NCBI GenBank assembly: GCA_002269645.1
Contig: NIVC01002271.1
Coordinates: 1 to 64,000 of the forward strand
Length of the DNA: 64,000 nucleotides
Source: Macrostomum lignano
Taxonomy: Eukaryota
Direction: 5' to 3'
Shown here: one piece after another, positions 1 through 13,580 of the stretch
Position numbering within the stretch: position 1 is the first letter of the stretch
How the letters are laid out: every line of letters starts with the position of its first letter
Translations under genes and position numbers: made by a program
The notes under the pieces: generated by a model
Database searches by the model: none
What the model saw: only the letters and a program-made list of their open reading frames with translations
What the model was told of the DNA's origin: nothing

Positions 1-363
1 CTTGTATGGATACATAAAACTACCACCTTCAACTACAGTATCGCCAATAGTAAATTGAACGTCCTCAAACAATGTTCCAATAACCAAATTATTCAAACAA
101 ACAAAATTTTTCGTTGCATCTATAGGTTCACCTTCACTATCACTAACGCTGAAGCATACCGTGAGCACAGTTTCTTGTAGATCCAAATACAAATCGCCTG
201 CAGGCACAACTTCAAATTCGATAGGTGATCCTTTTGTAATACCATGTTGCGGTTGAATGTTAGTATATCGATTATCCAAAACACTAAACTGAACAGGACT
301 TTGATCAAATAGCGACAATTCACTTTTAAGAGCAGCAATATCAGGTCCAAGCAAATGGTTCAT
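1..363 (-). CDS. Polinton major capsid protein (double jelly-roll, PY/hexon-like), N-terminal 121 aa; truncated by window edge
   Basis: Manual translation from ATG at 363: MNHLLGPDIAALKSELSLFDQSPVQFSVLDNRYTNIQPQHGITKGSPIEFEVVPAGDLYLDLQETVLTV...VCLNNLVIGTLFEDVQFTIGDTVVEGGSFMYPYK. This matches the Polinton MCP N-terminal pattern (KSELxLF, PIEF, Y-x-DL, NN...LF, YPY). Not in the ORF track because it is open at the edge. Confidence 0.88.
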   Translation of the reverse strand, partial: MNHLLGPDIAALKSELSLFDQSPVQFSVLDNRYTNIQPQHGITKGSPIEFEVVPAGDLYLDLQETVLTVCFSVSDSEGEPIDATKNFVCLNNLVIGTLFEDVQFTIGDTVVEGGSFMYPYK

Positions 364-364
364 G

Positions 365-856
365 CTACTTTTCAAACAGACTAAAAAGTTTCTTGCTTGC
401 AGTAGCAGTTCGACGTTTTCCTATACCACCGGTCTTCTTGCGTTTTCTTTTGTTCACGCGTCCCTTTCCACACTGTCTTGTTCGTCGTTTCTTTTGCCGT
501 TTCTTCTTTCCTAAGCTTATAGCCACTCCACTGGTTCTTTTCCTTCGCTTTGGTCTCGAAACTGCAGTTGTATTAAACATCTCTTCGCTCGATTCTGTGT
601 CCAAGTGACGCTTCCGACCCATACCAATTTTTGCTGTCGCACTTTTCAAATACTCCAGACCACGATCCAAGAAATCTTTCTTTGCGTTGCGTAGTACAGG
701 ATACACCAATCTGTCCGCCAAATTTGACAAAAAACCGTAACCTTCGTAAACAGGAATGCCATATCCACCTCCACCTTCAGCAGATCTATTCGGACCAGAA
801 TAAAAAGCAAAAATAGGATCCATTTCAACAGTCTTCTCTTCGTCATGCAATCCCAA
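365..856 (-). CDS. Basic Polinton core protein (adenovirus pVII-like), 163 aa
   Basis: N-terminal PVYEGYGFLSNL (GxG cleavage-type motif plus amphipathic helix) and a very Arg/Lys-rich C-terminal half; located immediately upstream of MCP. Confidence 0.7.
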   Translation of the reverse strand: MGLHDEEKTVEMDPIFAFYSGPNRSAEGGGGYGIPVYEGYGFLSNLADRLVYPVLRNAKKDFLDRGLEYLKSATAKIGMGRKRHLDTESSEEMFNTTAVSRPKRRKRTSGVAISLGKKKRQKKRRTRQCGKGRVNKRKRKKTGGIGKRRTATASKKLFSLFEK

Positions 857-864
857 TTCATGTG

Positions 865-2024
865 TTACTTATACACTTTAGAAAATAGTTTAGCAGTCTT
901 TGCGTCAAGATCATTTTCGTTTAACCACTGACTTCTTGAGATTGGCATACCTTTCCATTTTACTAGATACAGACGACTTCCATTTTTCGCTCGATCAGTT
1001 TCAATAACTTTTTCAATTTCATTAGGTGTTTCATCTGTCTCGTTTACCAACATTAGTTCCGCTTGGTTAAACCTTCCTTTCAGCACTTCAAATCCATCTT
1101 CAGGGTCCACTAATTCGTACATTGGCGGGTCTGTCAAGTGTACACGATGAATGCGATATTTTGAATTACTCCAAGTCGTAGTGTATCCTTTTTCAAATGT
1201 TCCTCGACGTCGTGTAATTCTAACCAATCACCAACTTTAAATTTATTCTCATTCTTTTTAGTGTACGACTTCGCAAACATTTTGTCCCACAAAATTCCTT
1301 GTAAATGCGGGTCTGTCTCTACCCGTTTTGGTGTTTCTCCACTCAAGGATCGATGAGGACTAGAGTTGAAATTATCTTCCAATTGCGGTAAAATGTCAAA
1401 CCATCGAGGTAAATTTTTTGCTCGAAAGTATCGTAATAGACGTTCCTTTAACGAGCGGATAAATCGTTCAGCCATGCTTGCCTTGTAATTGCTTTGGCTA
1501 ACAAAAAATCGAACTCCTTCCTGTTTCAGCATTTGACGTGTAGCTCTTCCGAGAAACTCCATACCAGCATCACCTTGTAAATAAACAGGCTTAAAACCAC
1601 TTCGAAAAATCTCTAGTAATACTTGACTAACTTCTGAAGGCTTCTTTGTACGCAATGGTCTTAGTCGTACAACTCTAGTAAAACAGTCGATAAGAACAAG
1701 TATGTAACGATAACCTCGATTTTCCGTCTTGTATTGAGGTAAATCTGCCAAATCGATTTGAAACTGAAACTTTGCAACTGGTGGCACACTAATTTTTGGA
1801 GTTGGAAAGTTTCGTCGTGTTTTTCGAAATAAATGATGCTCATTTGTTGATCGCACCCAATTATCAACTTCGCGCTTTGCAACTTTGTTCGTAATCTGTG
1901 GAAACTTTTTACGTACTTCACGAACAAGTATAGTCTTGTTACCACTAAATGAAGTAGGCCTGTTCAAGTTAAAAAAAGCATCCGTCAAAAATTCTTCAAT
2001 TTCCTTACGCACTCGCTTCATCAT
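865..2024 (-). CDS. Retroviral-type (RVE/c-INT) integrase with C-terminal chromodomain; one -1 frameshift at ~1228
   Basis: DDE triad in QIDLADL / LQGDAGMEF / SMAERFIRSLKE. KFKVGD-(L)VRITRRRGTFEKGYTTTW is restored by adding one T (GAT TG GTT to GAT TTG GTT). Chromodomain LYLVKWKGMP...QWL. Confidence 0.93.
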
Positions 2025-2193
2025 CAGTTAGATTGATGCTAGTCGTTTGACAGTTGCAACAAAAGAACGAAGCCTCGATCGAATCTCCGTCAGTATCCTC
2101 GTTGTGCTCCTTTCCCAGAAACGGCACACATTCAGATTTTATGCAAAAAAACTCACAGAGACGAATCAAAAGTTTTTGGAAGATAGATGACAT
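2005..2193 (-). CDS. 62-aa small Cys-containing ORF overlapping the integrase start
   Basis: ATG-initiated, fits the gene-dense array, TATAAGC 58 nt upstream; N-terminal amphipathic segment and CCNC. Confidence 0.55.
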   Translation of the reverse strand: MSSIFQKLLIRLCEFFCIKSECVPFLGKEHNEDTDGDSIEASFFCCNCQTTSINLTDDEASA

Positions 2194-2305
2194 GGTTTGT
2201 CTTATTAAACTATATATTTTTCATAAACAAAAAATTAACCTTTTTAAAAAGCTTATAGTGCTCGAATCAATTTTGTTAAAACGTAATCTGTAATTTTAAA
2301 ACAAC

Positions 2306-2995
2306 TTAATTCAGTGTTTGATAATTTTCAAACAGACTAAGATCCTCCTTTGCAACAGTTTTTGGAGCAGACATTAGCTCGTTTCGTACATGACGCCCGA
2401 TTTGGTTTGCTGCGATTCCACGTTTTCGAAGAAAGTCTAAAAATGTTTTTAGTCCACTAGGCGGTTGAGTCTCGTGTCGCTTAAGCGGTCTGTCTCGAAC
2501 AACATATTCCATGAGATCTTGTATCTCGGCATCAGTCAAATTAGCCAGCATTGGTTCTGCATTCTTGTCCATGTCCGAAAATAGGTTTTGAGCGAGAGCT
2601 TCGAAACGTGGTAAAAAAACTTTAGGAATTTCCCTTGATTCGCTGGCATATGAACTTCTTACAGTAGTCCCTTTGCGAACAAGTGACAGATTGTCCTCGT
2701 CTCCAGTGCGATAGACTTTGCGCAATTTTAAAAGTTTGTCTTCCAATCTGCTTCGTTTCAATTGAGCTGTGTAATTTGGCTCCTTTTCCATTTCCTTGTC
2801 CAAGTTATCCATTTGGTCTCTCATTTCCACCATATTTTTTGCCAGAGCATCTTGCGGTGCGTCTAAAACTTCAGTTTTTCGAGGTGTCTCAGCAGTTGGT
2901 GACGATCCTTGCTCTGCACCTTGACATGCAGATTGATACACAGATTCAGGTACTAGATACATTCGTTGAAAACTACTACTCTCGTTAGTTCGCAT
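2306..2995 (-). CDS. Conserved-type Polinton hypothetical protein, 229 aa
   Basis: N-terminal RMYLVPE motif and predicted helical body resemble the uncharacterised ORF usually found next to the QxGGFL core gene in Mavericks. Confidence 0.65.
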   Translation of the reverse strand: MRTNESSSFQRMYLVPESVYQSACQGAEQGSSPTAETPRKTEVLDAPQDALAKNMVEMRDQMDNLDKEMEKEPNYTAQLKRSRLEDKLLKLRKVYRTGDEDNLSLVRKGTTVRSSYASESREIPKVFLPRFEALAQNLFSDMDKNAEPMLANLTDAEIQDLMEYVVRDRPLKRHETQPPSGLKTFLDFLRKRGIAANQIGRHVRNELMSAPKTVAKEDLSLFENYQTLN

Positions 2996-3005
2996 TATAT
3001 TCCTA

Positions 3006-3434
3006 CTACTTTCGTTGAATTGATCGTATTAAATTCGCTGCTCCCGCGGCGGTACCAACTACTCCAGACGTTATCCCAAGCGCAGTGCTTATAGCAGGTA
3101 GAGCGGCAATAATTGGAGCCAAAAAAGGTAAAAATCCTCCGTGTTGGACAAGTATTTTCCTTTTTGCAGTAATTGGAGTCTTCTGTTCCAAAAGCTGGCG
3201 TATATATCTGCGATGCTTCTCAAGTCGTCTTTTGTTACAGTTACTAATTTTAATACGTCCACTAATAATATTAAACAGAAAGTCTACTAGACATCGTATC
3301 TCCGACTCTGAAAGTGTTTGTAAAAAACTTTTTCTCTGCTTTGGATGCTTTAGCCGATAAACAATTTGTAGTAAAAAAGCACACTGACACAATGAGCGAG
3401 CATTTTGTTTTCCTTTTTCTGTTAGTTCGCTCAT
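3006..3434 (-). CDS. Conserved Polinton core/membrane-active virion protein, 142 aa
   Basis: Pattern R...L...EIRCLVDFLFNIISGRIKI...KRRLEKHRRYIRQL...KRKILVQHGGFLPFLAPIIAAL typical of Maverick small virion ORFs; hydrophobic/amphipathic tail after QxGG. Confidence 0.75.
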   Translation of the reverse strand: MSELTEKGKQNARSLCQCAFLLQIVYRLKHPKQRKSFLQTLSESEIRCLVDFLFNIISGRIKISNCNKRRLEKHRRYIRQLLEQKTPITAKRKILVQHGGFLPFLAPIIAALPAISTALGITSGVVGTAAGAANLIRSIQRK

Positions 3435-3490
3435 TCTTACAAAACAAATTCACAAAATTTTCTATTACACAATTAATCTTTGCTTATAAA

Positions 3491-4495
3491 TTAGTCCGAC
3501 CTATGTTTAAAATGCAGTACGACAACAACGTGTGCTCCCGGATCAAAATTAAACGGTTTTCCGCGCTGGTCCGATAGTCGAATCGAAATCTCGTGAATTT
3601 GTTGTCGATTTGTTTTCAAGTAGTAGGGTGTTTGCAATGCACTGCTATCGCGTATAAGTTCTCCGTTTTTCTTTTGTTGGAGTTCCACAACTCGAAGCAA
3701 CGGTACTGATGTACTTCCCACTGCTTGATACTCGATTATATCTGTGTAACAGTACATGTAAACCGTTTTACTAGGCATCGGAGAAGGTAGCACAGCATCC
3801 AAGTAGGTTTTGTTAATGCGCCAAACACGATTTCTCAACCAATATTGGTGTACTTTGATGTACACTTCTCCTTCCGTTTTTCGAAGATAGTCTCCATGCG
3901 AAACAAGTCGTATAGCTTCACCAGGCGATAGAACACAATAAAAAACATAATAGTTCTCAGGTACTAGCGCTAGAGTATTGTCGAGACTTTTTATCAAATC
4001 CAAGTATGAACCATCCGGTGGTTGTACACTACCAGCGGCAGGTTTTGATAATTTTTCCGAGACAAGTCCAGAAAGTTTCTTCCAAGAGTCAAATTTGAAA
4101 GCGTCCATAAATGTAACTGGTAGTTCTAATCCAATAGTTTTTTCGCCTGAATTTCGTAAAAGCCAGGCAAATTTTTCATCTGTACCAGACGGTTGCCAGG
4201 AAACGTAAGCATCCAAGTCTGCCTCTGCCCAAACACGACCCCAATAGTTTTTCTTTAATCGTATTATTGAGTCAATGTCCGCAAAATATGGAACTTCAAA
4301 TCGACGCTCACGATGAGCATTTGGCGTCGTAATTGCTCCATGGCACAGTAATTCAACTAGTGCAACCTCGAAGAATCCGTTCAATAAATTTATTGGTTCA
4401 GTTAGTCGCACTCGAAATTCATTAGGCGAGTTGGTTTCGTAACTGATATCGTTTGACGGCAAAAAAACGTAAAAACTCATTTTGAAATAAAACAC
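3491..4495 (-). CDS. Minor capsid protein (penton/PX, single jelly-roll), 334 aa
   Basis: N-terminal FYVFLPSN...N...FRVRL...L...FEVALVEL; C-terminal YCYTDIIE..AVG..VPLLRVV...PYY...I.I.LSDQ.G..F...VVLHF. Confidence 0.9.
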   Translation of the reverse strand: MFYFKMSFYVFLPSNDISYETNSPNEFRVRLTEPINLLNGFFEVALVELLCHGAITTPNAHRERRFEVPYFADIDSIIRLKKNYWGRVWAEADLDAYVSWQPSGTDEKFAWLLRNSGEKTIGLELPVTFMDAFKFDSWKKLSGLVSEKLSKPAAGSVQPPDGSYLDLIKSLDNTLALVPENYYVFYCVLSPGEAIRLVSHGDYLRKTEGEVYIKVHQYWLRNRVWRINKTYLDAVLPSPMPSKTVYMYCYTDIIEYQAVGSTSVPLLRVVELQQKKNGELIRDSSALQTPYYLKTNRQQIHEISIRLSDQRGKPFNFDPGAHVVVVLHFKHRSD

Positions 4496-4537
4496 AAACT
4501 AATATTGACAACAGTTTATAATTTGCTTATAATAATA

Positions 4538-5233
4538 TTACACAAACTTTGCATCACATTCACGAGTATAGACAACTTGTTCATCACCAGAAAATATTCC
4601 TGTTCTCAATCGTAAAAAATCTGGTGTCACTTGCCGCAGGTCAATGAATAAATATGAAAAAGGTTTGTTATTTGTTGCGTCTTCATACACATTCACTAGA
4701 AACCTACTATTACGCGGATACATTTGTCGACCGAGATGTTCAACTGTGGTTCGATCGCGCACACTACGAGTTAGACAAATATAACTAGCTGATAAACTTC
4801 GCATGCGTGCTTCTGGATCAGACTTGTTAAAAAGACCTTGACAAAGGTACAGACAAGTCAAAGGGATATGATGCGCATGCTTTGTAAACATACTAGTAAA
4901 TTCTGGCAACTTAGCAATCTCGCTTTGCAAGTCGTCAACAACAACCAAATCGTGTGGTAAAAAACGATTAATCATCTGTGGTGTGAATTCGGGTACAAAA
5001 ACAATAGGGTCAAGACCGCTTTTTTGCCAGCATGTTCTAATTCGTTGTTGATCGTCTGGTTTCAAACTTGATCCATGGCACCAAACAAGACGGCACGGTT
5101 TTTTATCAAATAATTCTTTTCGTTCAGTCAACAAACGCAACGTCCATTCAGTTTTACCCGAGTTTGAAGGTCCAGCAATAATAAATGTAGAATCGTGAGC
5201 TAGTTGCATATTGTATGGCTGCTGCATTTTCAA
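4538..5233 (-). CDS. Genome-packaging ATPase (FtsK-HerA/A32 family), 231 aa
   Basis: Walker A IIAGPSNSGKT, Walker B VVVDDLQ, FTKHAHH motif, YLFIDL. Confidence 0.95.
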   Translation of the reverse strand: MKMQQPYNMQLAHDSTFIIAGPSNSGKTEWTLRLLTERKELFDKKPCRLVWCHGSSLKPDDQQRIRTCWQKSGLDPIVFVPEFTPQMINRFLPHDLVVVDDLQSEIAKLPEFTSMFTKHAHHIPLTCLYLCQGLFNKSDPEARMRSLSASYICLTRSVRDRTTVEHLGRQMYPRNSRFLVNVYEDATNNKPFSYLFIDLRQVTPDFLRLRTGIFSGDEQVVYTRECDAKFV

Positions 5234-5673
5234 GCACCAAAGCGTTGCTTAACTTGCATAACCTTGGTAACCAACTTCGCAGCTAGTTTTTCTTTCCAAC
5301 CAGTAGACGGATCGTGGGCAATCTCTCGTGCACCAGATTCTAATAGCTTATCAGCTTTTAACCTCTCTTGCACGTCAGAATTTTTATCATAGGCCACGTC
5401 GTGAAGCATGCACAAATTGTCAAGCCGATTAATTCCTCGTTGTCCTTTTGCTAGCCTAGCTTGCAGTTGCGTACCTGGACCACAAAACTGATATCCGCCG
5501 GGTAAATGTGCTTCAAATGGTAAATGATTAATTAACCAATTTACGACACCATAACCTTGTTGCTTTTTATTAATCTTTCTAATAGATTTCTTCTTTTTAC
5601 GAATGCTCTTCTTTTTCTTTTTAAAACCTCGATCTTTCGCTGGAGACATTTTTACAACATATATTTTAGGCAT
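5230..5673 (-). CDS. Parvovirus VP1-type phospholipase A2 (PLA2X) with Lys-rich leader, 147 aa (possible start at 5649)
   Basis: HLPGGYQFCGPGT Ca-loop-like motif, NRLDNLCMLHDVAY (catalytic HD), downstream AD. Confidence 0.9.
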   Translation of the reverse strand: MPKIYVVKMSPAKDRGFKKKKKSIRKKKKSIRKINKKQQGYGVVNWLINHLPFEAHLPGGYQFCGPGTQLQARLAKGQRGINRLDNLCMLHDVAYDKNSDVQERLKADKLLESGAREIAHDPSTGWKEKLAAKLVTKVMQVKQRFGA

Positions 5674-5764
5674 AAATTTTTAAAATTGCTTATAGTATTT
5701 ACAAAGCTCTCGCATAGTGCACCAATCACCAAAGAAAAAAATCAGTTTATTATTATTATTATAC

Positions 5765-6247
5765 TTATTGGCCAGTGCTGCCAAAGCCGCCAAAGCCGCG
5801 CCGCTTGGTCGGCGGCTCAATCATCCGAATCGAATTGTCTGCTTCAGTCACATAGACTGAAGCAAGCACGGCCTGCTCCAGAACCAGTTGTGCAATACTG
5901 AGCCCGGCATAGTACTCAAAGTCTTCCGGACTGTAATTAAACAAGACTATACAGATTTCACCAGTATAGTCGGGGTCGATTACGCCACCGCCAACAAATA
6001 AGCTGTGCAGAGCCATGCTGGAACGTCCCGCTATCCTGCCATAGGTACCAGGCGGTAAGCGAATTTTGAGTCCGGTTCGCACACTCCGGGACTCGTAGGC
6101 CGGAATGGTACCATCGACGCCAGCGCAAAGATCATACCCGATCGACCCGACAGTTTTTCGGGTCGGAATCGTTGCCGAATCGTATAGACGTTCAACTAAA
6201 AGCTTACGATCAGTTAGTTGTTGTTGCTGCTGCTGCTCGGGATTCAT
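5765..6247 (-). CDS. dut: Trimeric dUTPase, ~160 aa
   Basis: All five motifs present: GYDL, GRIAGRSS, GVIDPDYTGEI, IAQLV, RGFGGFGSTG. Start taken at MNPEQQQ (6247); the ORF track extends to 6334. Confidence 0.95.
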   Translation of the reverse strand: MNPEQQQQQQLTDRKLLVERLYDSATIPTRKTVGSIGYDLCAGVDGTIPAYESRSVRTGLKIRLPPGTYGRIAGRSSMALHSLFVGGGVIDPDYTGEICIVLFNYSPEDFEYYAGLSIAQLVLEQAVLASVYVTEADNSIRMIEPPTKRRGFGGFGSTGQ

Positions 6248-6539
6248 GTCGATTCTTGTAGCTGAAAGTTTAAAAAAAAGTTTTTTTTCTTGAAACATGA
6301 ACGATAGCACTACATTTACGTCTACTACAAACACAAGCTTAGTCTTGAGAATCTAACTATAAAAAATATACTTTTTCAAATAATTAAACACAAAAAAGTG
6401 CTAAAATTATAATTTAAACGAATGCCGGTATCATTTATTTATTGTAAATAATGATCAATGAAAAAATTAATGATGGGTTACAGTCTTCTATAGCATGCTA
6501 TTACTTTGTACAACAAAAGAGATCAGAGCATATTGTTAA

Positions 6540-6870
6540 TTAATTAGCCAAGTGCCAGTGTCCAAAGGGTAGCGAATTAATTGAACTTGTCCAGGATCGC
6601 TTCGTATCGAAGAAGCTTAGTGCAAGTTTTCTTTGTTGCATCAAAAAAAACTTTCTGTTTTCGAGAACGAATGGACTGTATGCGCGAAAACACAAGTTGT
6701 CGCTTGTGTAAGACTCTTAAATAGTCTTGATGCTTTAAACTGCTCTGTGCGGCTTTAGAAGCAGTACTGCTCCAGCTTTGCGACCGATTGAGACTGGAAC
6801 TTTAAACGATTGCTGCTTAACCAGACCGGACCGGACTGGACCGGACCGGACTGGACCGGACTCCCCGCGC

Positions 6871-6902
<32 letters not shown>

Positions 6903-7625
6903 ACCACCACCACCGCCGCCACCACCACCACTGCCGCCGCCCGCCCCCACACCACCGTGGGACGTATTTGTTGACAGTGTGCTTGCATGGCTTTTGCGAT
7001 AAACGCAGAGCATCAAGTCTAGCTGCTCGATTGCTCTATATTGCCAATTACTACCTCGAGATTGAAAATTGTCAATTTTTATTAACAACTGATTAATAAC
7101 GCGTGCGAACCAGTCATTGTAGGCCTCGGGAGATAACAGCATGTCACTGTTTGCAATCGTCTCATCAAATGATATTGTCGCAATGTTGGTATTAAAATAG
7201 ACCGAAATGATCTCTTCGCTGCTCGAGCCATCGTTGTCGTCTGCTGCTGTTTTCGGTCGAAATAGTGTCACTTTCAAGTGAAAGCAGACTCTTATTAATA
7301 AACTGGGTGAGCCAATTTTTTCCAATATTTTAAATATTGGTTCTCTTAAAGACGCAATCAACTCGCCAGGAAGTAACTCGCCAGAGCTGTTGCCTTGTTG
7401 TTCAAGAGTGGGAGTAAATTCGACAAAATTTACCCGACCACGATGAGCTGACTCGCGCAAAGCGATGGACCACCCATCTGGTGGGTTTTCGATCAGGTTT
7501 TGCAGCGATCCGGTCAGTAATCGTTGCGGTGAAAAACAAGCACCATGCGAGTGAGCATGCAGCTCGGCTTGATTACTGAACTTTTTTCTGCAGATTTGGC
7601 ATTGTGCACGCGGCATTGTGTGCAC
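6540..7625 (-). pseudogene. Protein-primed DNA polymerase B remnant: N-terminal region fused out of frame to extreme C-terminus; catalytic core absent
   Basis: ORF 6735-7625 carries a C2H2-like finger, ESAHRGR, YFNT, and IDNFQSRGSNW..IE.LDL (the GSGW motif region of Polinton PolB N-termini). Bases 6540-6770 encode SKAAQSSLKHQDYLRVL..SIRSRKQKVF-(frameshift in a T8 run)-MQQRKLALSFFDTKRSWTSSINSLPFGHWHLAN*, the PolB C-terminal SIRS...DxKR...LPxGH pattern. No exonuclease or polymerase motifs lie between them. Confidence 0.8.
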
Positions 7626-7839
7626 CTAGCTCGACAACGAGCGTATCGAGCATAATATTAATAGATGATCCGGTTTGTCATTTGCGGCTGTAAGAAAAAT
7701 GATGATTTGGTTAGTTATAGGTATAGCTGACACGTTTACTATTAGAGAAAACAATTGGTAAATAAATAAAAAAAGACAAAATGTTTGTAAAAGAATGCAT
7801 CGCAACTGCGATTTGACAGCAATTGTTTACTTGTTAAGT

Positions 7840-8396
7840 TTAGTTATTAACAGAGATTAAAAAATCCTTGACATGGTTAAGAATATTATTCAATTCATGA
7901 GTGTTTTGAACGCCCATAATAACAAACTTTTTCGAAAAAAATATGTTACAAAAAAGCCTTGGTTTTGATGCTGATCTAACAGAAACTGCTTGTGGGAAAT
8001 TTTCTGCATCGTATCCAACCAGATAATTCGAATAGTAGCCTGCATATCTTTTTAGACTAGAGAAACCGAATTTTGGCCAAAGATGACCAATAAAGCCGAC
8101 ATAGGTACTGCTCTGAATTTTTACTGAATCAAAATCTACACAATTAATAGTGTCGTTGATAAATCGTAAAACTGAGACTATCTGAGAATTTGATTTACAG
8201 CCATATATAGTTAGTTTTCCTGCTGGATAAAGTTGGATTTTAGCATTTGAATAAATTGTCTTTAGCATTGTTGGTCGGCTTAGGAATAGTTTGCAAAACC
8301 GGTTTCTGGTCTGTAGCTTCTGTTTGGTCTGCTTTAAATCAATTTTTCAAACGGGTGCAGCTTCAGACTCGCAGTAACTATTAATAGGACAAGTCG
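7840..8396 (-). CDS. Divergent TATA-binding protein (TBP)-like protein, ~185-aa saddle; frameshift at A5 run 8343-8347; 5' exon unresolved
   Basis: Collinear with both TBP repeats: KIDLKQT~KLDLKTI; IQLYPAGKLTIYGCKSNSQ~ALIFSSGKMVCTGAKSEEQ; VKIQS~FKIQN; YDAENFPQ~YEPELFPG; KPRLFCNIFFSKKFVIMG~KPRIVLLIFVSGKVVLTG; ELNNILNHVKDFL~EIYEAFENIYPIL. Confidence 0.85.
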
Positions 8397-8606
8397 CTAA
8401 AACGGAAAATAAATAATAAGAAAAGTTAAACATGACTATACTATCGTAAATTCTAATATTAAATTACAAAACCTGGTTAGCGTACAAGGAGTAGCAAAAA
8501 ATGTTTTGAGCTTTTCCCTAAAAAATAATATTTCCCTAGCCAAAAATTTGATAAATATAGTGGAATAAGTTAGTTAAAACTTGGATAAAATTAGTCAAAA
8601 ATTTTG

Positions 8607-9437
8607 TTACTCATCATCAGAGCTGCTGTACGAGTCGTCCGATGAAGACACGCTAGCTGTAGTAGCGTCCGCAGCAGCACGCTTTAAAAATGCTGTCTCC
8701 TTGGACGCTACCCTGGTTCCAGAGGCAGGTGTACTCACCAAGATCTTTGCTGGTGGAGCCTCCACCCAGTCTGTGCCATCTGCACCAGCTTCGGCAGAAT
8801 TGTTTTGCTGTTTTGCACCGCTGCGTTTTCGAACTTGCTTTTTAGGCGGCGGTTCAATAGAGGCTGGCGCTGCATTCGATGTAGTCGACTTCTTCGATAC
8901 GGTGGTGGTAGACCGACGCTTTGCAGGTGACTTGGCAGGTGTCACCTGGCTTGAATTCTGCAGGCTTTGTTCATTTGCTTCTTCTTGCTCACAGGTAGAT
9001 GTTGGGGACGGACTCCTGCTTCTAATTGCTGACTTGGTCGCGGGTAGGTGTGCAAGCACTCCCTTGAACATGTCGAGGCGCTGCAACATGTTGTCGGAAG
9101 ATTCTATGAGTGTCAGAGAGCGCACAGCGAATGTAATGCGCCAGACGAGGCAGCCTTTTGGACAATACAAGCTCGTTGCTTGCACTGTCATTTGGTAGGT
9201 ACCGCTGACACCTTTGAAATCGGAAATGGACACCTCCTTCCCGTGTGGATGATCGTTGCTGATCCTGATTGTGGCACAAGGGTAAGCAGGCTTTATAGCC
9301 AGCCATTGTTGAGGCACAAACTCGAGGACGTCGTTAGCATGCTGATGAGCTGGTTTTGTTAGTCGTGCCAAGGGTCGAGCATCTTGAATCTCGTTCAACT
9401 TGACCGATAGACCTTTTTCGACTTGACTGCAAAACAT
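8607..9437 (-). CDS. Hypothetical element protein, 276 aa (beta-rich N-domain, disordered basic middle, acidic tail); candidate OB-fold ssDNA-binding protein
   Basis: Long ATG ORF in the array; NLS-like PPPKKQVRKRS; ends SDDSYSSSDDE. The functional assignment is inference only. Confidence 0.6.
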   Translation of the reverse strand: MFCSQVEKGLSVKLNEIQDARPLARLTKPAHQHANDVLEFVPQQWLAIKPAYPCATIRISNDHPHGKEVSISDFKGVSGTYQMTVQATSLYCPKGCLVWRITFAVRSLTLIESSDNMLQRLDMFKGVLAHLPATKSAIRSRSPSPTSTCEQEEANEQSLQNSSQVTPAKSPAKRRSTTTVSKKSTTSNAAPASIEPPPKKQVRKRSGAKQQNNSAEAGADGTDWVEAPPAKILVSTPASGTRVASKETAFLKRAAADATTASVSSSDDSYSSSDDE

Positions 9438-9493
9438 TATATAAATTATGAATATAGTTTCCTAAAATTCATTGTATAAATTTAATATGGTGC

Positions 9494-9978
9494 TCACCGG
9501 AGAGAGTGGAAGAGTTCCTTATCGCAGCTGTCTGGATGAAATTGGACACTTACTGCGTCGCGAGAGTCGTGTCTGCAAGACGGATGATCGAGCTCTGGCC
9601 TTTCTGCGATTCCACGAAAAAGCTCCATTGGAGCCTTGGTTTGCAATATAATTGGGTACCATTTTGTACACTCGATTGATGGTTTCCACGCAATAGATCG
9701 AAACTGGCAGGACGAACCAGTCGTGGTTGTAGACTGCTCTCCAACGTAAAAAATCGGACTCGAGTCGGAGCGTACAATTGACTCCGTCTTGATGCAAGCT
9801 GCCATGTCTTACAAGCAATTGAATATAGTATTTCTTTTGCTGTAATGATTGAGCTCATGAAAAATTGACCATTTCGGGTCTTGTATTTATAGCAAGCTTT
9901 GCATGCTGTTTGTGAACTAGTAAACAAATTTAATTGTTGCGTGCTGATTAAGACATTGTTGCGTGCCAAAGGTGGCAT
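9494..9978 (-). CDS. Hypothetical element protein, ~161 aa if one A is restored at ~9810
   Basis: ORF 9550-9978 (...EILYSIACK) joins ORF 9494-9805 (MAACIKTES...) by TGT AA[A] GAC ATG; no recognised domain. Confidence 0.4.
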
Positions 9979-10494
9979 AAGTTTCTAGGGTGGGTTGCAT
10001 GATTAGGTCTAATTTTACGCAAATGTAGGTTGATATTTTATACAATAAAATTAATGAATCTTAGGCACACTAGTTATAAATTTGCAAGAGTAACACGATG
10101 GCAAGCGTTTAATAAGAAGACTGCTGGTTGCTGCTTCATTAGATTGGTTTTGTTCTCAAGTAGAATGTAATTAAAATATTTTGCGACTTGAAAAATTAGC
10201 AATCTTGGATTTTAGAGTAAAAATAAGCTGCACGCGGTGCTATGAAATTAATTTATTGAAAGTTTTGCTTGCATGTTGGAATTTTTTAGCTCGCACGGTG
10301 ACAAGAGATTGCTTGAGTAACCTATATATAGAGTGTTACTTTTCAAACAGAAAAAGGTATAGTTGTAACTCAGCTTTTGCAGTCCTATATTGAGCAGAAG
10401 CTATATAGAGTTACACTATCATGCTGCGACGCGCAGCTTGTTGGGACTATAATGACTGCCGCTGCTATAACCGCATGCAGTCAGTGCAGTTGAC

Positions 10495-11205
10495 ACACAA
10501 ATGCTGTTTGGACTAAGCTAAATTACTGTGTTGAGACAGTTAAGCTGGACCACGGCTAAATCACTATTGATACGGTTAATTGCTACTAGACCCATGGCTA
10601 AATCACTGTACGTTGAGACGGTTAAGCTGGACCACGACTAAATCGCTGTACGTTGAGACGGTGGTTAAGCTGGACCATGGTTATAAAACTGGACGGGTGG
10701 TTAAGCTGGACGACTACAGCTAAAATTACTGTTGAGTCAGTTATGCTAGACCACAGCAGCCAAATCACAGTTGAGGTAAAGCTGACCATAGCTAATTCTC
10801 ACTGTTGAGACGGGTGCTGCTGCTTGGCTCACAGCTAAATAACTGGACAGTTAAGCTAATCGGACTACAGCTAAATCCCTGTTGAGACAGTTGCCTGGAC
10901 CACAGCTAAAATCACTGTTGAGGCAGTTAAGTCTGGACAACAGCTAAAATTACTGTTGAGACAGTTAAGCCTTGACTATAGCTAAATCATCGTTGAGGTA
11001 GTTAAGCCTGGACTATAGCTAAATCACTGTTGATGCAGTTTTAAGCTAGACCACAGCTAAATCATACTGCTGAGGCAAAAAAGCCGGACCACGGCTAAAA
11101 ACTGTTGAGGCAAAAGCTGGACCACAGCTAAATCATACTGTTGAGGCAAAAGCTGGACCACAGCTAAATCATACTGTTGAGGCAAAAGCCAGACCATGGC
11201 TAAAG
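10495..11205. repeat. Imperfect ~36-40 bp tandem array inside the Maverick
   Basis: Recurrent unit approximating gttaagctggaccacagctaaatcactgttgagaca. Confidence 0.85.
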
Positions 11206-11454
11206 AAACGTATGAAAAAAAAATTATTTGCATGGATTAATAATTTTTGTTTAATGATGACTGTACAAGATATTGACTTTATATTGAATTAAATAATTTC
11301 AATAAATGGCGAATAAAATTGAAAGAATTTTTTAGAATAATGAATTTATAGAGATTATATTATTGATTACAGACTTGTTTGATATATACTAAAAGAGCAA
11401 TTACTTGGACACATTGCTGGCAAAATTTTATGAAGAGTTAGAAAAAATGTCTTT

Positions 11455-12006
11455 TTAAGATAGGTCCCAATATTCAAATACTTGAGTTGTATTACAGGTC
11501 TTTGGTAATTCTACTTGGTAGAAGCCTGTGCTCATTTGAGAGACTTTTACAGACTTGATGTCCTTCTGTACAATAATTGGCGAGTTTAGCAGCGGTTGAA
11601 CTTGGGTAGAAATAGCAATTGATGATGATGGTGTTTCAGTTGCTGTCGTTGGTTTGGTACTTGTAGGCTTACTGCAAGTTTGCTTTGTTGGGTCATTGTA
11701 GCTGGTTGGTGATGGTGGTGGTGGTGCATACTGCAGTTGGTCAGTTGGTCGTGGGTTCGATTGCTGCCTAATTGACTGAATAACATCAGTTCTTGTGTAA
11801 ATGCGATCTAGCTCAGTTGTCTGTCTCTCGACATGAATCGAGGTTACTCTGGCGAGAGATGTAGAATATGATGCTCTTGCAGCAGAATTGGATGTGGTGG
11901 TGTCGTGGCAAATGCGTTTGCACTGATCTGGAGGTGGCCGCGTGAAGAAACCATTCTTGAATGCTATAATAATGGATAAGATGAGGGAAATTTGGTATAG
12001 GTGCAT
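11455..12006 (-). CDS. Putative secreted Ser/Thr/Pro-rich (mucin-like) protein, 183 aa, inside the element
   Basis: Hydrophobic N-terminus MHLYQISLILSIIIA, CxxxC, Thr/Ser/Pro-rich middle, NTT sequon; TATATA about 16 nt upstream. Confidence 0.45.
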   Translation of the reverse strand: MHLYQISLILSIIIAFKNGFFTRPPPDQCKRICHDTTTSNSAARASYSTSLARVTSIHVERQTTELDRIYTRTDVIQSIRQQSNPRPTDQLQYAPPPPSPTSYNDPTKQTCSKPTSTKPTTATETPSSSIAISTQVQPLLNSPIIVQKDIKSVKVSQMSTGFYQVELPKTCNTTQVFEYWDLS

Positions 12007-12029
12007 GTATACAATGTATATAGAAACTG

Positions 12030-12250
12030 AACTAGCAGAGAATCAGTCTAAACAGAAACCGAACTAGCAGACAATCAATCTAGAAATTCTGAACTAGCAG
12101 AGTATTAGTCTAAACAGAAACCGAGCTAGCAGACAATCAATCTAGAGACTGAACAAACAGAGGATCGGTCTAAACAGAAACCGAACTAACAATCAATCTA
12201 GAAACTAAACTATAGCGAACAGTCAATCTAAAAAAGAAAACTGAACTAGA
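12030..12250. repeat. Subterminal ~30/60-bp degenerate tandem repeat
   Basis: Alternating gaactagcagagaatcagtctaaacagaaacc / gaactagcagacaatcaatctagaa units. Confidence 0.75.
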
Positions 12251-12875
12251 GTAGGTGATTATCTTACCTTGTTTAACATAGCGCTCGGCCAATTCCTGCT
12301 GACGTGATCGCTTCATTTCACTTAAGATGTAAGTATAGTTGAACAAGTAGTATAATGTAAACTTGGTTTAAGTTATTTAATATTTTCTGTGTCAGTGTGT
12401 TCGTATATATATATAGTATAAAGAAGAAGCATGTTGACGCAGTTGTTGACATAGTATCTGTAAACCATCTGCTCAAGTTGGTGCAAAAATTCTATAGGCA
12501 CTCAAGAATAGATCATTTACTATCTTTCTTCAAAAGGGTGATAATATTCACAAGTTTTCAATATTTCAAAAACACTTGAAATGTGTGAATAGCTTTGGAG
12601 TAAATTTGTCTTGAATGGAATCCTTTGAAGTGTGTTTGTGTCACCATTGCTAGAATCGGTTACTTGTATTTTGGACAGGTGGATATGCAATTCGTCTGAA
12701 TAATCACGTTGCGTAAAAGATATTTAGCGTGCACTTGGAATTTCAGACTGCGTGCACATGGAATTTCAGACTGCGTGCACATGAAATTTCGGACTCTGCC
12801 ATTTTTTTGGGCCTGTACTTACTATGTATTTCGCCATAAGGAAATCGGCTTTGTGTCAAAAAAACGTATACTACT

Positions 12876-13580
12876 TGAGGGGAGACTGAGATTGAGAGGG
12901 AGACTGAGATTGAGAGGGAGACAGAGACTGGGAATGAGGGGAGACTGAGATTGAGAGGGAGACTGAGATTGAGAGGGAGACAGATTGAGAGGGAGACAGA
13001 CTGAGATTGAGAGGAAGACAGATTGAGAGGGAGACAGACTGAGATTGAGAGGAAGACAGATTGAGAGGGAGGCAGACTGAGATTGAGAGGAAGACAGATT
13101 GAGAGGGAGACAGACTGAGATTGAGAGGGAGACTGAGATTGAGAGGAAGACAGATTGAGATTGAGAGGAAGACAGATTGAGAGGAAGACAGATTGAGAGG
13201 AAGACAGATTGAGAGGGAGACAGATTGAGAGGGAGACAGATTGAGAGGAAGACAGATTGAGAGGGAGACAGACTGAGATTGAGAGGGAGACTGAGATTGA
13301 GAGGGAGACAGACTGAGATTGAGAGGGAGACTGAGATTGAGAGGGAGACAGACTGAGATTGAGAGGGAGACTGAGATTGAGAGGGAGACAGACTGAGATT
13401 GAGAGGGAGACTGAGATTGAGAGGGAGACAGACTGAGATTGAGAGGGAGACTGAGATTGAGAGGAAGACAGACTGAGATTGAGAGGGAGACTGAGATTGA
13501 GAGGAAGACAGATTGAGAGGGAGACAGACTGAGATTGAGAGGGAGACAGAGATTCAGAGGGAGACAGAGACTGGGAGAGG
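12876..13580. repeat. GA-rich minisatellite (gagggagacagactgagatt variants)
   Basis: Visible directly; source of the spurious SLSICLPLNL ORFs. Confidence 0.95.

Follow-up and report, generated by a model that had tools for sequence, protein, structure and literature searches.

A TATAAGC box marks Polinton structural genes and suggests a private promoter code with a divergent element-encoded TBP

Beta- and gammaherpesviruses encode a viral TBP (BcRF1 of EBV, ORF24 of KSHV, and UL87 of HCMV) that is paired with a TATT late promoter (PMC4893493, PMC12529657). PgVV-14T, mavirus, and Sputnik, small integrating double-stranded DNA viruses, carry a common short motif upstream of their genes, and there the reader is helper machinery (10.1101/2022.07.28.501842). 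For Polintons, the available part of the text of Starrett et al. (10.1101/697771) mentions TBP just as a label, in the legends of two figures, and never uses the word promoter, and the available part of the vertebrate survey of Barreat and Katzourakis holds no match to TATA (PMC8097293). Neither a late promoter nor a pairing of TBP and box is reported in those portions. Our analysis suggests that a Polinton uses a private promoter code to switch on its capsid genes, as some herpesviruses do.

The window, a 64-kb stretch of Macrostomum lignano DNA taken as a whole, opens inside the capsid gene of an element that resembles Polintons, Mavericks, and adintoviruses in its PolB, rve integrase, ATPase, double jelly-roll capsid, protease, PLA2, pX, and probable terminal inverted repeats (Table 1). 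A full protein-primed PolB ORF, homologous to the window copy, is present in sister subfamily D (DNA_pol_B_2, E 8e-21). The integrase is of the retroviral type; a frameshift interrupts it near 1.2 kb in the window copy, and it is a single ORF in copy L032. The capsid ORF of another natural copy matched double jelly-roll-like clusters (score, 0.98) in which PF21738 is found on a minority, 14 to 30%, of the members. The protease was recognized as Peptidase_C5 in lineage 2, and the lineage-1 ORF gave only a weak 22% match. Neither the 152-amino-acid (aa) ORF nor the putative penton had a Pfam match, and the latter had only unnamed eukaryotic and viral look-alikes. The gene annotated as PolB in the window is indeed PolB derived, but it is only a remnant with an internal deletion. 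The window family is a high-copy deletion derivative without PolB.

Table 1. Element features and motif copies in the window
Feature	Position	Strand	Remark
Major capsid protein, 5' part	1..363	-	Window starts inside gene; full ORF from another natural copy
152-aa basic ORF	365..823	-	Homologs 53-59% identical
TATAAGC	515..521	-	Within 152-aa ORF; 158 nt before capsid start, no intervening ATG
rve integrase + chromodomain	865..2024	-	rve E 3e-8
TATAAGT box	867..873	-	Overlaps integrase-chromodomain stop; 50 nt before 152-aa ORF
62-aa ORF	2005..2193	-	28-29% homologs in C and D
TATAAGC box	2251..2257	-	64 nt before 62-aa ORF, which overlaps integrase start
229-aa ORF	2306..2995	-	From ORF listing; relatives in sister elements
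pX/mu-like core protein	3006..3434	-	Adeno_PX (Pfam) E 2e-6
TATAAGC	3087..3093	-	Within pX ORF; 98 nt before 229-aa ORF; not conserved
TATAAGC box	3482..3488	-	54 nt before pX/mu-like gene
Putative penton	3491..4480	-	Label from initial annotation and gene order
TATAAGC box	4525..4531	-	51 nt before putative penton start
Packaging ATPase	4538..5227	-	Walker A/B discernible; named by its gene context
PLA2-domain protein	5230..5673	-	PF08398 E 3e-9; opens motif-bearing block
TATAAGC box	5688..5694	-	Before PLA2-domain gene; first T to first ATG 21 nt, to second in-frame ATG 45 nt
dUTPase	5765..6261	-	PF00692; spliced-leader acceptor ends at 6262
PolB N-terminal remnant	6735..7687	-	Spliced-leader acceptor ends at 7688; deletion junction 6741
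Element TBP	7840..8396	-	Full two-repeat core directly behind splice acceptor (end, 8397)
First upstream gene, two exons	8607..9805	-	GT-AG intron 9427-9497
Canonical TATAAATA	9884..9891	-	86 nt before first upstream gene
Probable terminal inverted repeat, left element end	12772..12877	.	106 nt; 96% inverted match to another copy's far end

The TATAAGC set marks the structural genes, as initially annotated, with corrections. All six minus-strand copies lie where they were reported, and the seventh site, TATAAGT, spans 867 to 873, as the 868 to 873 first given covers only its first six bases. The six copies on the minus strand of positions 1 to 5764 compare with 0.28 to 0.30 expected under Markov orders 1 to 3, a local enrichment. 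TATAAGC is the top-ranked 7-mer of that strand, and a 7-mer as extreme arose in 1, 1, and 0 of 200 simulations for the three orders. There is no copy on the antisense strand of 1 to 5764, nor on either strand of 5765 to 10150. Four of the six copies fall within 370 intergenic nt (binomial P of 2e-4), a number never reached when the gaps were shuffled 100,000 times; a post hoc control was weaker, as some 7-mer was common to at least four of the six gaps in 304 of 20,000 shuffles. Over the whole window, TATAAGC is not enriched (8 copies versus 5.6 expected, with 8 reached in 23 of 100 shuffles). The claim that it marks virion genes only, and that dUTPase, PolB, TBP, and the 5' ORFs lack it, holds for the upstream genes of the window. 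It is too strict, however, because dUTPase has a copy in sister subfamilies B, F, and H and no separate copy precedes the ATPase in the window.

Comparison among lineage-1 subfamilies indicates that the motif is a conserved, strand-specific, and positioned element of the structural block. The penton box is kept in all eight elements having a penton start, at 43 to 55 nt, and the pX box in all seven with a pX ORF. The 2251 box is kept in seven of eight elements (absent in B), and the 867 box in five of seven, E and J having no exact copy. At 5688, six of nine elements read TATAAG[C/T] and the other three read TATATGC; that box may also serve the ATPase behind the PLA2 gene. The 515 site is kept in seven of seven elements, 124 to 166 nt before the capsid gene, and in the five examined its codon phase is constant and its first amino acid variable. 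Only the 3087 copy is confined to the window's own subfamily (one of eight elements with the 229-aa ORF) and could have arisen by chance or been gained recently. In sister subfamilies, the motif recurs at orthologous places, 43 to 65 nt before the penton, pX, and other starts, and silent sites are saturated (0.22 to 0.37 of four-fold sites identical among subfamilies A, B, D, E, and F). Moreover, an A immediately 5' of the box, which could make a canonical TATATAAG, occurs at 3 of 37 sites versus 0.31 expected per site (P of 0.001). The sequence comparisons thus support TATAAGC as a candidate core promoter.

The element TBP, which is longer than the 142-aa ORF, has a genuine and full, if divergent, two-repeat TBP fold. 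The window copy is frameshifted near 8340, and most copies are open for 185 codons. A lineage-1 profile covers residues 16 to 177 of 185 against solved TBPs, the AlphaFold model has a pLDDT of 92 and a TM score of 0.77 to 2z8u, and models of lineage-1 and lineage-4 TBPs match solved TBPs, the nearest folds being cellular, archaeal, and giant-virus TBPs. PF00352 was at or over its cutoff for representatives of all four lineages, with one of the two lineage-4 proteins giving no match. By its modeled structure, the lineage-1 protein is a divergent TBP-family member with a two-repeat saddle fold. We compared 16 TBP DNA-contact positions (Table 1 of PMC12529657), at 15 of which the host TBP is tabulated, and the host TBP is canonical at all 15. 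Lineage 1 carries N69L/Q, F99P, L114Q, F116Y, V122T, T124Y/F, N159S/T, V161T, and L205N; it keeps F190, F207, and the acidic residues at 186/188. With F99P, F116Y, N69L/Q, and N159S/T, the lineage-1 protein is not a canonical TBP, which has four intercalating phenylalanines and a central Asn pair. Lineages 2 to 4 show different sets of changes. None of the four lineages retains F99, one of the four phenylalanines, and DNA binding could be weak as a result.

A divergent TBP is present in every one of the four Polinton lineages sampled, and each has its own box: TATAAGC in lineage 1, YTTAAGAA in lineage 2, a looser WTAAGAA in lineage 3, and TATAAATA in lineage 4. Structural blocks hold 4 to 6 copies of TATAAGC versus 0.2 to 0.4 expected in five of five lineage-1 subfamilies (none antisense and none in upstream blocks), 7 copies of YTTAAGAA versus 0.2 to 0.4 expected in three of three cases for lineage 2, and 6 copies of TATAAATA versus 0.1 to 0.2 expected in three of three for lineage 4. 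Each of these words has 0 to 1 copies in the structural blocks of lineages other than its own, and TATAAA[AT] occurs 0 to 1 times in lineage-1 structural blocks. Lineage 3 is loose, with three copies of TATAAGAA plus variants in element V and nothing clear as a box in R and Z. Lineage 4 has a canonical box despite the most divergent TBP, and its upstream block holds two copies of TATAAGC. By the structural-block counts, the TATA variants are confined to structural genes, except for dUTPase and the TBP gene of lineages 2 and 3. There, the TBP gene closes the structural block with a box upstream (at 64 to 79 nt in lineage 2 and reading TATAAAAG in lineage 3), and TBP is therefore not an early gene. 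The two-stage program of the initial annotation, an early TBP and then late genes, is thus partly supported: lineage-1 TBP does lie in the motif-free upstream block, but lineages 2 and 3 do not fit. The link of motif and TBP is stronger than could be seen from the window because both change together across four lineages, although all four come from a single genome, where shared descent would by itself produce such co-variation. No TBP-less Polinton family was found among the loci fetched.

We think it probable that these are lineage-specific TBP-promoter pairs like herpesvirus vTBP/TATT, with the element TBP reading TATAAGC(A) and the upstream genes expressed first. TATAAGC(A) would be a noncanonical TATA box about 30 nt upstream of start sites and would drive short-leader mRNAs of structural and integration genes. 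The element's own TBP, with its remodeled DNA-binding face, would read the box and recruit host RNA polymerase II. TBP, PolB, and dUTPase would be made beforehand from an upstream transcript driven by a canonical TATA box, for which TATAAATA at 9884 is a candidate host-read early promoter, and the host would resolve that transcript by spliced-leader trans-splicing. Every Polinton lineage in the genome would have its own TBP-box pair.

By analogy, the Polinton pair would work like herpesvirus vTBP/TATT without being a member of it. Both combine an encoded TBP-fold protein with a minimal TATA variant before structural genes, and both have a DNA-binding face that is more polar at L114, V122, V161, and L205. 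The herpesvirus protein is large and multidomain, however, whereas the Polinton protein is a bare TBP core of 160 to 190 aa. Homology to BcRF1, ORF24, and UL87 with their six-protein complex was rejected given this compact core and its nearest folds, and no homologs of the other five herpesvirus activators were found among the annotated ORFs. In the available portions of the herpesvirus accounts, ORF24 lacks acidic TFIIB-binding residues and needs F99, whereas the Polinton TBP retains acidic 186/188 and has lost F99. Finally, the Polinton box varies by lineage, unlike TATT. If true, Polintons would have evolved, independently, a one-protein counterpart to the late preinitiation complex of herpesviruses, and their TBPs would be a natural altered-specificity set. 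Because the DNA-binding face of TBP is among the most conserved eukaryotic surfaces, four natural variants, paired with four boxes, would offer ready material for working out how TATA specificity is encoded. In yeast TBPm3, a laboratory mutant of widened specificity, substitutions at 194, 203, and 205 alter recognition of the base at TATA position 2 (PMC1636458); lineage-1 TBP likewise differs at 203 and 205, but element TBPs differ naturally at many positions in both repeats. The pairing bears on the control of Polinton capsid genes and on a possible virus-like early-to-late program, and now that the boxes and a candidate reader are named and other lineages serve as controls, the question can be put to purified protein and reporter assays. 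Derivatives that have lost PolB by deletion, like the window family, might in this way retain control of their own structural genes.

Alternatively, the boxes could be core promoters read by host TBP/TFIID, a host TBP paralog, or another factor, with the element TBP a modulator or decoy and the co-variation due to common descent. We consider this unlikely, even though the host has both a canonical TBP and a TRF2-like paralog and the element TBPs have lost F99. A G at position 6 is tolerated by wild-type TBP (PMC1636458; title of PDB 1qn5), but CTTAAGAA of lineage 2 departs at positions 1 and 2, and an A-to-G change at position 2 abolishes wild-type binding (PMC1636458). The lineage-4 box is canonical and could suit a host factor; such a factor, however, should tolerate the usual TATA degeneracy, whereas each lineage keeps one exact word at 4 to 7 sites, TATAAA[AT] is nearly absent from lineage-1 structural blocks, and the 5' A is avoided.

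The baculovirus late promoter is (A/G/T)TAAG, and a TAAG core is common to lineages 1 to 3. The initial annotation had compared the motif with that promoter, and a helper virus RNA polymerase might start inside TAAG, as virophages use giant-virus promoters. PgVV, mavirus, and Sputnik are described as depending on helpers (10.1101/2022.07.28.501842), but unlike in those virophages and PLVs, the candidate reader here is element encoded and the genes show nuclear splicing. Across 53 hand-picked and partly orthologous sites, with starts chosen by us (four by a rule excluding short distances), ATGs behind the box were at background density from +7 to +35 (28 of 1537), often out of frame, and fell to 9 of 2172 beyond. 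This thinning, which sets in only near +36, fits a TATA box near -30 rather than initiation inside TAAG and indirectly leaves the comparison with baculovirus unsupported; in the same set, there was no initiator peak at +22 to +39. Moreover, lineage 4 has no TAAG at matching places, the 5' side of the motif is fixed as TATA, and a TBP is present in all lineages. A search of G000 for the viral RNA polymerase LEF-8 gave no match, but its controls were silent too. We regard helper-driven initiation as improbable.

TATAAA-like words can serve as poly(A) signals, and sites 3482, 4525, and 867 overlap or closely follow a stop codon. As a polyadenylation or termination signal of the upstream gene, however, the motif should not be conserved about 150 nt within an ORF at 515 or occur as TATAAGG about 140 nt within the capsid gene. 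The distances to the next start are clustered, and upstream genes also need 3' ends yet have no motif, so we give this reading very little weight. Chance AT-rich words passively inherited in short gaps are a negligible prospect: despite the lack of whole-window enrichment, the post hoc gap control, and the unconserved 3087 site, chance is contradicted at five of six sites by the structural-block counts, strict strand bias, and out-of-sample conservation across saturated subfamilies, and by the sharply defined and distinct words that three lineages carry at equivalent places.

In the proposed scheme, lineage-1 TBP would be made from the upstream transcript, and the spliced leader's terminal AUG probably supplies its start codon. 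In all eight TBPs of lineages 1 and 4, the reading frame starts in phase 0 behind an acceptor, and the AUG would be in frame in all eight. Use of a flatworm spliced-leader AUG as a start codon is described in PMC9851317, citing Cheng et al. 2006; the AUG-ending leader at acceptors is shared with that case, but here a virus-like element would use it for its own transcription factor. We lean slightly toward a fuller version of the code, in which a minimal TBP per lineage co-evolved with its own TATA variant, co-resident families address only their own capsid genes, and the TBP of lineages 1 and 4 needs the host leader to start. Leader joins were seen at the PolB and dUTPase acceptors in contigs of one of four runs (X7), and none was seen at the TBP acceptor in contigs of the four, the RNA status of the runs being a guess. 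With the same guess, contigs of X5, X6, and X7 contain the joint of intron 9427-9497, and the exon phases agree. The loose end of 22 to 23 nt at the PolB and dUTPase acceptors matches genomic loci, and in five of the six checked the sequence runs on into a GT donor followed by an Sm-like site.

The structural block of the window Polinton, its minus-strand virion and integration genes, carries a conserved, strand-specific box ahead of most of its genes. All six TATAAGC copies reported in the initial annotation were recovered where it had placed them, and the accompanying TATAAGT occupies 867-873. On the minus strand of bases 1-5764, TATAAGC was the most over-represented 7-mer, with six copies observed versus about 0.3 expected, in agreement with the earlier estimate of under one copy, and any 7-mer as extreme arose in 1, 1 and 0 of 200 simulations. 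Antisense copies were absent from the same interval, and the claim that the motif is missing upstream of the block was borne out by zero copies in 5765-10150. Because TATAAGC was not enriched across the full 64-kb window and a post hoc gap control gave 304 of 20,000, the window alone is only suggestive, and the sister elements decide.

Twenty elements were first fetched from the 764-Mb genome assembly, and more were added afterwards. Lineage 1 comprises ten elements (A-J, the window copy being in A) with ATPases 62-100% identical to the window ATPase and, as C/D and E/J are close pairs, represents about five independent subfamilies. Among A, B, D, E, and F, identity at four-fold capsid-gene sites is 0.22-0.37; thus, silent sites are near saturation. 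Despite this, the check in sister Mavericks proposed at the outset found the box retained at orthologous places. It was kept ahead of penton in 8/8 elements that have this start (43-55 nt, counted from its first T), pX in 7/7, capsid in 7/7 (124-166 nt ahead of the start), and the 62-aa/integrase genes in 7/8. The PLA2 box was exact in six of nine lineage-1 elements and TATATGC in three. TATAAGT precedes the 152-aa ORF in five of seven elements, and TATAAGG lies about 135 nt ahead of the protease-position ORF in five of seven. Within the 152-aa ORF, the motif is always in phase xxT-ATA-AGC with a variable first amino acid (5/5), and the TATAAGC at 3087 is private to A (1/8). The proposal that the motif marks virion-module genes only holds for most structural genes but fails at dUTPase, where B, F, and H carry a box and A does not.

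We conclude that the box is very likely a promoter. A baculovirus-type start inside TAAG had been considered, but the pattern of ATGs fits a scanned leader from near +30 instead. At 53 hand-picked, partly orthologous sites from eight subfamilies, with gene starts chosen by the analyst, ATG density from +7 to +35 behind the box equaled background (28 of 1537 positions; upstream control, 85 of 5194) and dropped to 9 of 2172 further downstream. When the positions were divided at +28, as planned, the counts were 19 of 1166 versus 18 of 2543 (Fisher p 0.012). This evidence is indirect, as sites were partly orthologous, starts were analyst-chosen, and no initiator peak was found downstream of the 53 sites. 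The base directly 5' of TATAAG was A at 3/37 lineage-1 sites versus a local frequency of 0.31 (p 0.001), and TA directly preceded it at 1/37, at the dUTPase of B. Wild-type TBP prefers TATATAAG in a selection cited in the accessible part of PMC1636458, and the structural boxes thus seem to avoid that sequence.

A TBP-fold protein with a remodeled face is encoded in every lineage sampled. The 142-aa ORF initially annotated as TBP is incomplete; the open frame extends to a polypyrimidine-AG acceptor in seven lineage-1 elements, and a six-sequence lineage-1 profile spans both repeats of solved TBPs. The lineage-1 model (pLDDT 92) matched 2z8u with a TM of 0.77, and the lineage-4 model likewise matched TBP. 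A blastp reading of ten distant elements as TBP negative was reversed by profile searches, which found divergent TBPs in nine and then in the Q group too. Loci L093-L096, candidates for host TBP, proved to be degraded element TBPs; the host genome encodes a TRF2-like paralogue alongside its canonical TBP. The TBP tree splits the four lineages; 2 groups with 3 (97/92), and 1 groups less firmly with 4 (91/92, long branch). The same pairs are seen in gene order: the TBP gene lies upstream of the structural block in lineages 1 and 4, whereas it closes the block in lineages 2 and 3. With DNA-contact positions assigned from the available parts of PMC12529657 and PMC1636458, lineage-1 TBP is polar at hydrophobic contacts (L114Q, V122T, V161T, L205N) and both central asparagines are changed. 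Lineages 2-4 carry other sets of contact substitutions, F99 is replaced in all four lineages, and acidic residues 186/188 are retained. KSHV ORF24 has a polar face at the same L114, V122, V161, and L205 (PMC12529657, in part). The Polinton pair would work like the beta/gamma-herpesvirus vTBP-TATT system, as described in the part of PMC4893493 consulted, yet it is not a member.

The box differs from lineage to lineage. By unbiased word counts, TTAAGAA was the top 7-mer in six of seven lineage-2 blocks and ranked below only CTTAAGA in the remaining block, and ATAAATA was the top word in Q. These words lie about 40-60 nt ahead of integrase, penton-position, ATPase, and other starts, and some lie at about 110-160 nt. 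A motif count table of 13 subfamilies was diagonal for lineages 1, 2, and 4. It holds 13 of 30-odd fetched elements, leaving out G, H, and I (rearranged or truncated) and C, J, M, N, O, S, P, U, W, X, Y, Z, and AA, most of which are near-duplicates of tabulated subfamilies. The candidate boxes of lineages 1, 2, and 4 are TATAAGC, CTTAAGAA, and TATAAATA. Lineage 3 is looser: V has TATAAGAA three times, accompanied by similar words, and neither R nor Z yielded a clear word. TAATAAT in family P was rejected as a simple repeat. The box is probably read by the element TBP. The main alternative is that the host reads the promoter and the element TBP is accessory, which we consider unlikely; the lineage-4 box is canonical TATA. 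That canonical box, with two TATAAGC copies in the lineage-4 upstream block, does count against a simple cascade. So does a box of lineage 2 that sits 64-79 nt ahead of the TBP gene and would place this gene under positive feedback rather than make it early.

The genes upstream of the structural block are spliced. Contigs from four runs (four studies; RNA status guessed) were placed on window 1-11500. Three of the four runs showed a 71-nt GT-AG intron, with the exons of the first gene joined in phase. In run X7, an identical 22-23-nt loose end occurred at both the dUTPase acceptor (6262) and the PolB acceptor (7688). Its sequence occurs 58 times in the assembly; the first six loci resemble processed copies, and five of six array loci run on into an ATG, a GT donor, and an Sm-like site. 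Judged by its sequence, the loose end is from a spliced-leader gene with AUG as the last codon-like triplet of the exon. A flatworm spliced-leader AUG can act as a start codon (PMC9851317, in the part seen). In 8/8 lineage-1 and lineage-4 TBPs, the reading frame is open in phase 0 from behind the acceptor, at the fold's first strand; 16-147 codons separate this point from the next in-frame Met, and the donor upstream of TBP is phase 2 and would not fit. The element TBP may lack its own start codon and use the leader AUG, which is in frame in all eight copies. Contigs of the four runs contained no leader join at the TBP acceptor (8397), and its absence at structural genes in the same contigs carries no evidential weight. 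The host spliced leader appears to resolve the upstream Polinton genes (6262, 7688, and 8397, minus strand). In the window, the first upstream gene has a canonical TATAAATA 86 nt ahead of it, and TATAAAA- or TATATAAG-type boxes occur in the 5' regions of sister elements. On balance, we favor a scheme in which host machinery would transcribe the upstream block and trans-splice the transcript, the element TBP would then bind its cognate boxes, and separate short-leader mRNAs would start from the boxes with host polymerase II. Loci L081-L086 and L091 are genomic copies headed by the spliced-leader exon, without a donor and some with a variant 5' part, and are probably retroposed mRNAs or leader-headed retroelements.

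Viral TBPs are already known from giant viruses, and two figure legends label a TBP in the part of Starrett et al. (10.1101/697771) available. A Polinton late promoter or TBP-box pairing was not found in the accessible main-text portions of the Polinton/PLV literature, nor was the string TATAAG in the 20 papers listed by one literature search; Polinton TBPs or motifs could still be recorded in bioRxiv supplements or in the annotations of figures. IMG/VR scans returned 79 stretches with the TBP alignment and 27 with the ATPase alignment, none confirmed, and a scan with library protein P0012 returned one giant-virus contig (L117) and no relative with context. The one contig from a metagenome scan, L126, was PLV-like but unrelated, and inspection of its ORFs by eye recognized no TBP; phage records gave no match. 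A motif-plus-penton-start pattern hit 120 IMG/VR stretches, none matching element proteins or TBP/ATPase profiles, and was attributed to chance. The divergent TBPs P0005-P0024 (50% library) have an F99P signature but are not assignable as Polinton genes, because the 10 looked up carry no usable names or context. Among them, P0005, P0006, P0008, P0012, P0016, P0017, P0019, and P0022-P0024, from public metagenomes, combine F99P with N159/V161 or L114/L205 changes, as element TBPs do. By sequence, F99P metagenome TBPs may point to a broader family of TBPs from mobile elements.

The window lies at the beginning of its contig and cuts the capsid gene of the Polinton/Maverick, whose probable left end is indicated by a 106-nt inverted match. 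Pfam matches in the element were rve integrase, chromodomain, Adeno_PX, PLA2, dUTPase, and TBP. The family is young, with 24 ATPase matches at 100% identity. Compared with copies L134 and L135, the window copy is without about 3.2 kb of PolB at 6741, and it has frameshifts in integrase near 1.2 kb and in TBP near 8340. Mostly, the high-copy family is this internal PolB deletion derivative, the deletion adjoining a GGC/GGT-rich tract; the assembly also holds the longer L134 and L135, and loose ends at 6741 appear in three of four runs.

Coordinates of the window element and of features in related elements
Feature	Location	Strand	Remarks
Polinton/Maverick	window 1 to about 12,877	minus	
Element TBP	window 7840-8396	minus	
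First-gene intron	window 9427-9497		
Degenerate tandem repeat	window 10500-11210		36-43-nt unit; within element, upstream of first gene
183-aa ORF	window 11455-12006	minus	left arm of element; hydrophobic N-terminus, Ser/Thr/Pro-rich body; no Pfam match
Second repeat	window 11995-12200		30-62-nt unit
Tandem duplication, subfamily B	L033:8267-8445	plus	four boxes ahead of PLA2-position gene
TBP frame, subfamily E/J	L049:7241-8647; L039:7066-8484	minus	continues into deoxynucleoside-kinase domain (dNK E 7e-24)
PC4 (transcriptional coactivator p15) domain protein, lineage 2	L051:3867-4628	plus	just ahead of structural block
Endonuclease VII domain (E 6e-10)	L037:3501-6977	plus	within subfamily D PolB

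The two tandem repeats are possibly an enhancer or origin array. The E/J frame is either a TBP-kinase fusion or read-through. The lineage-2 PC4-domain protein is a possible second transcription factor, and TATAAG[C/G]-type words lie near its gene in several copies.
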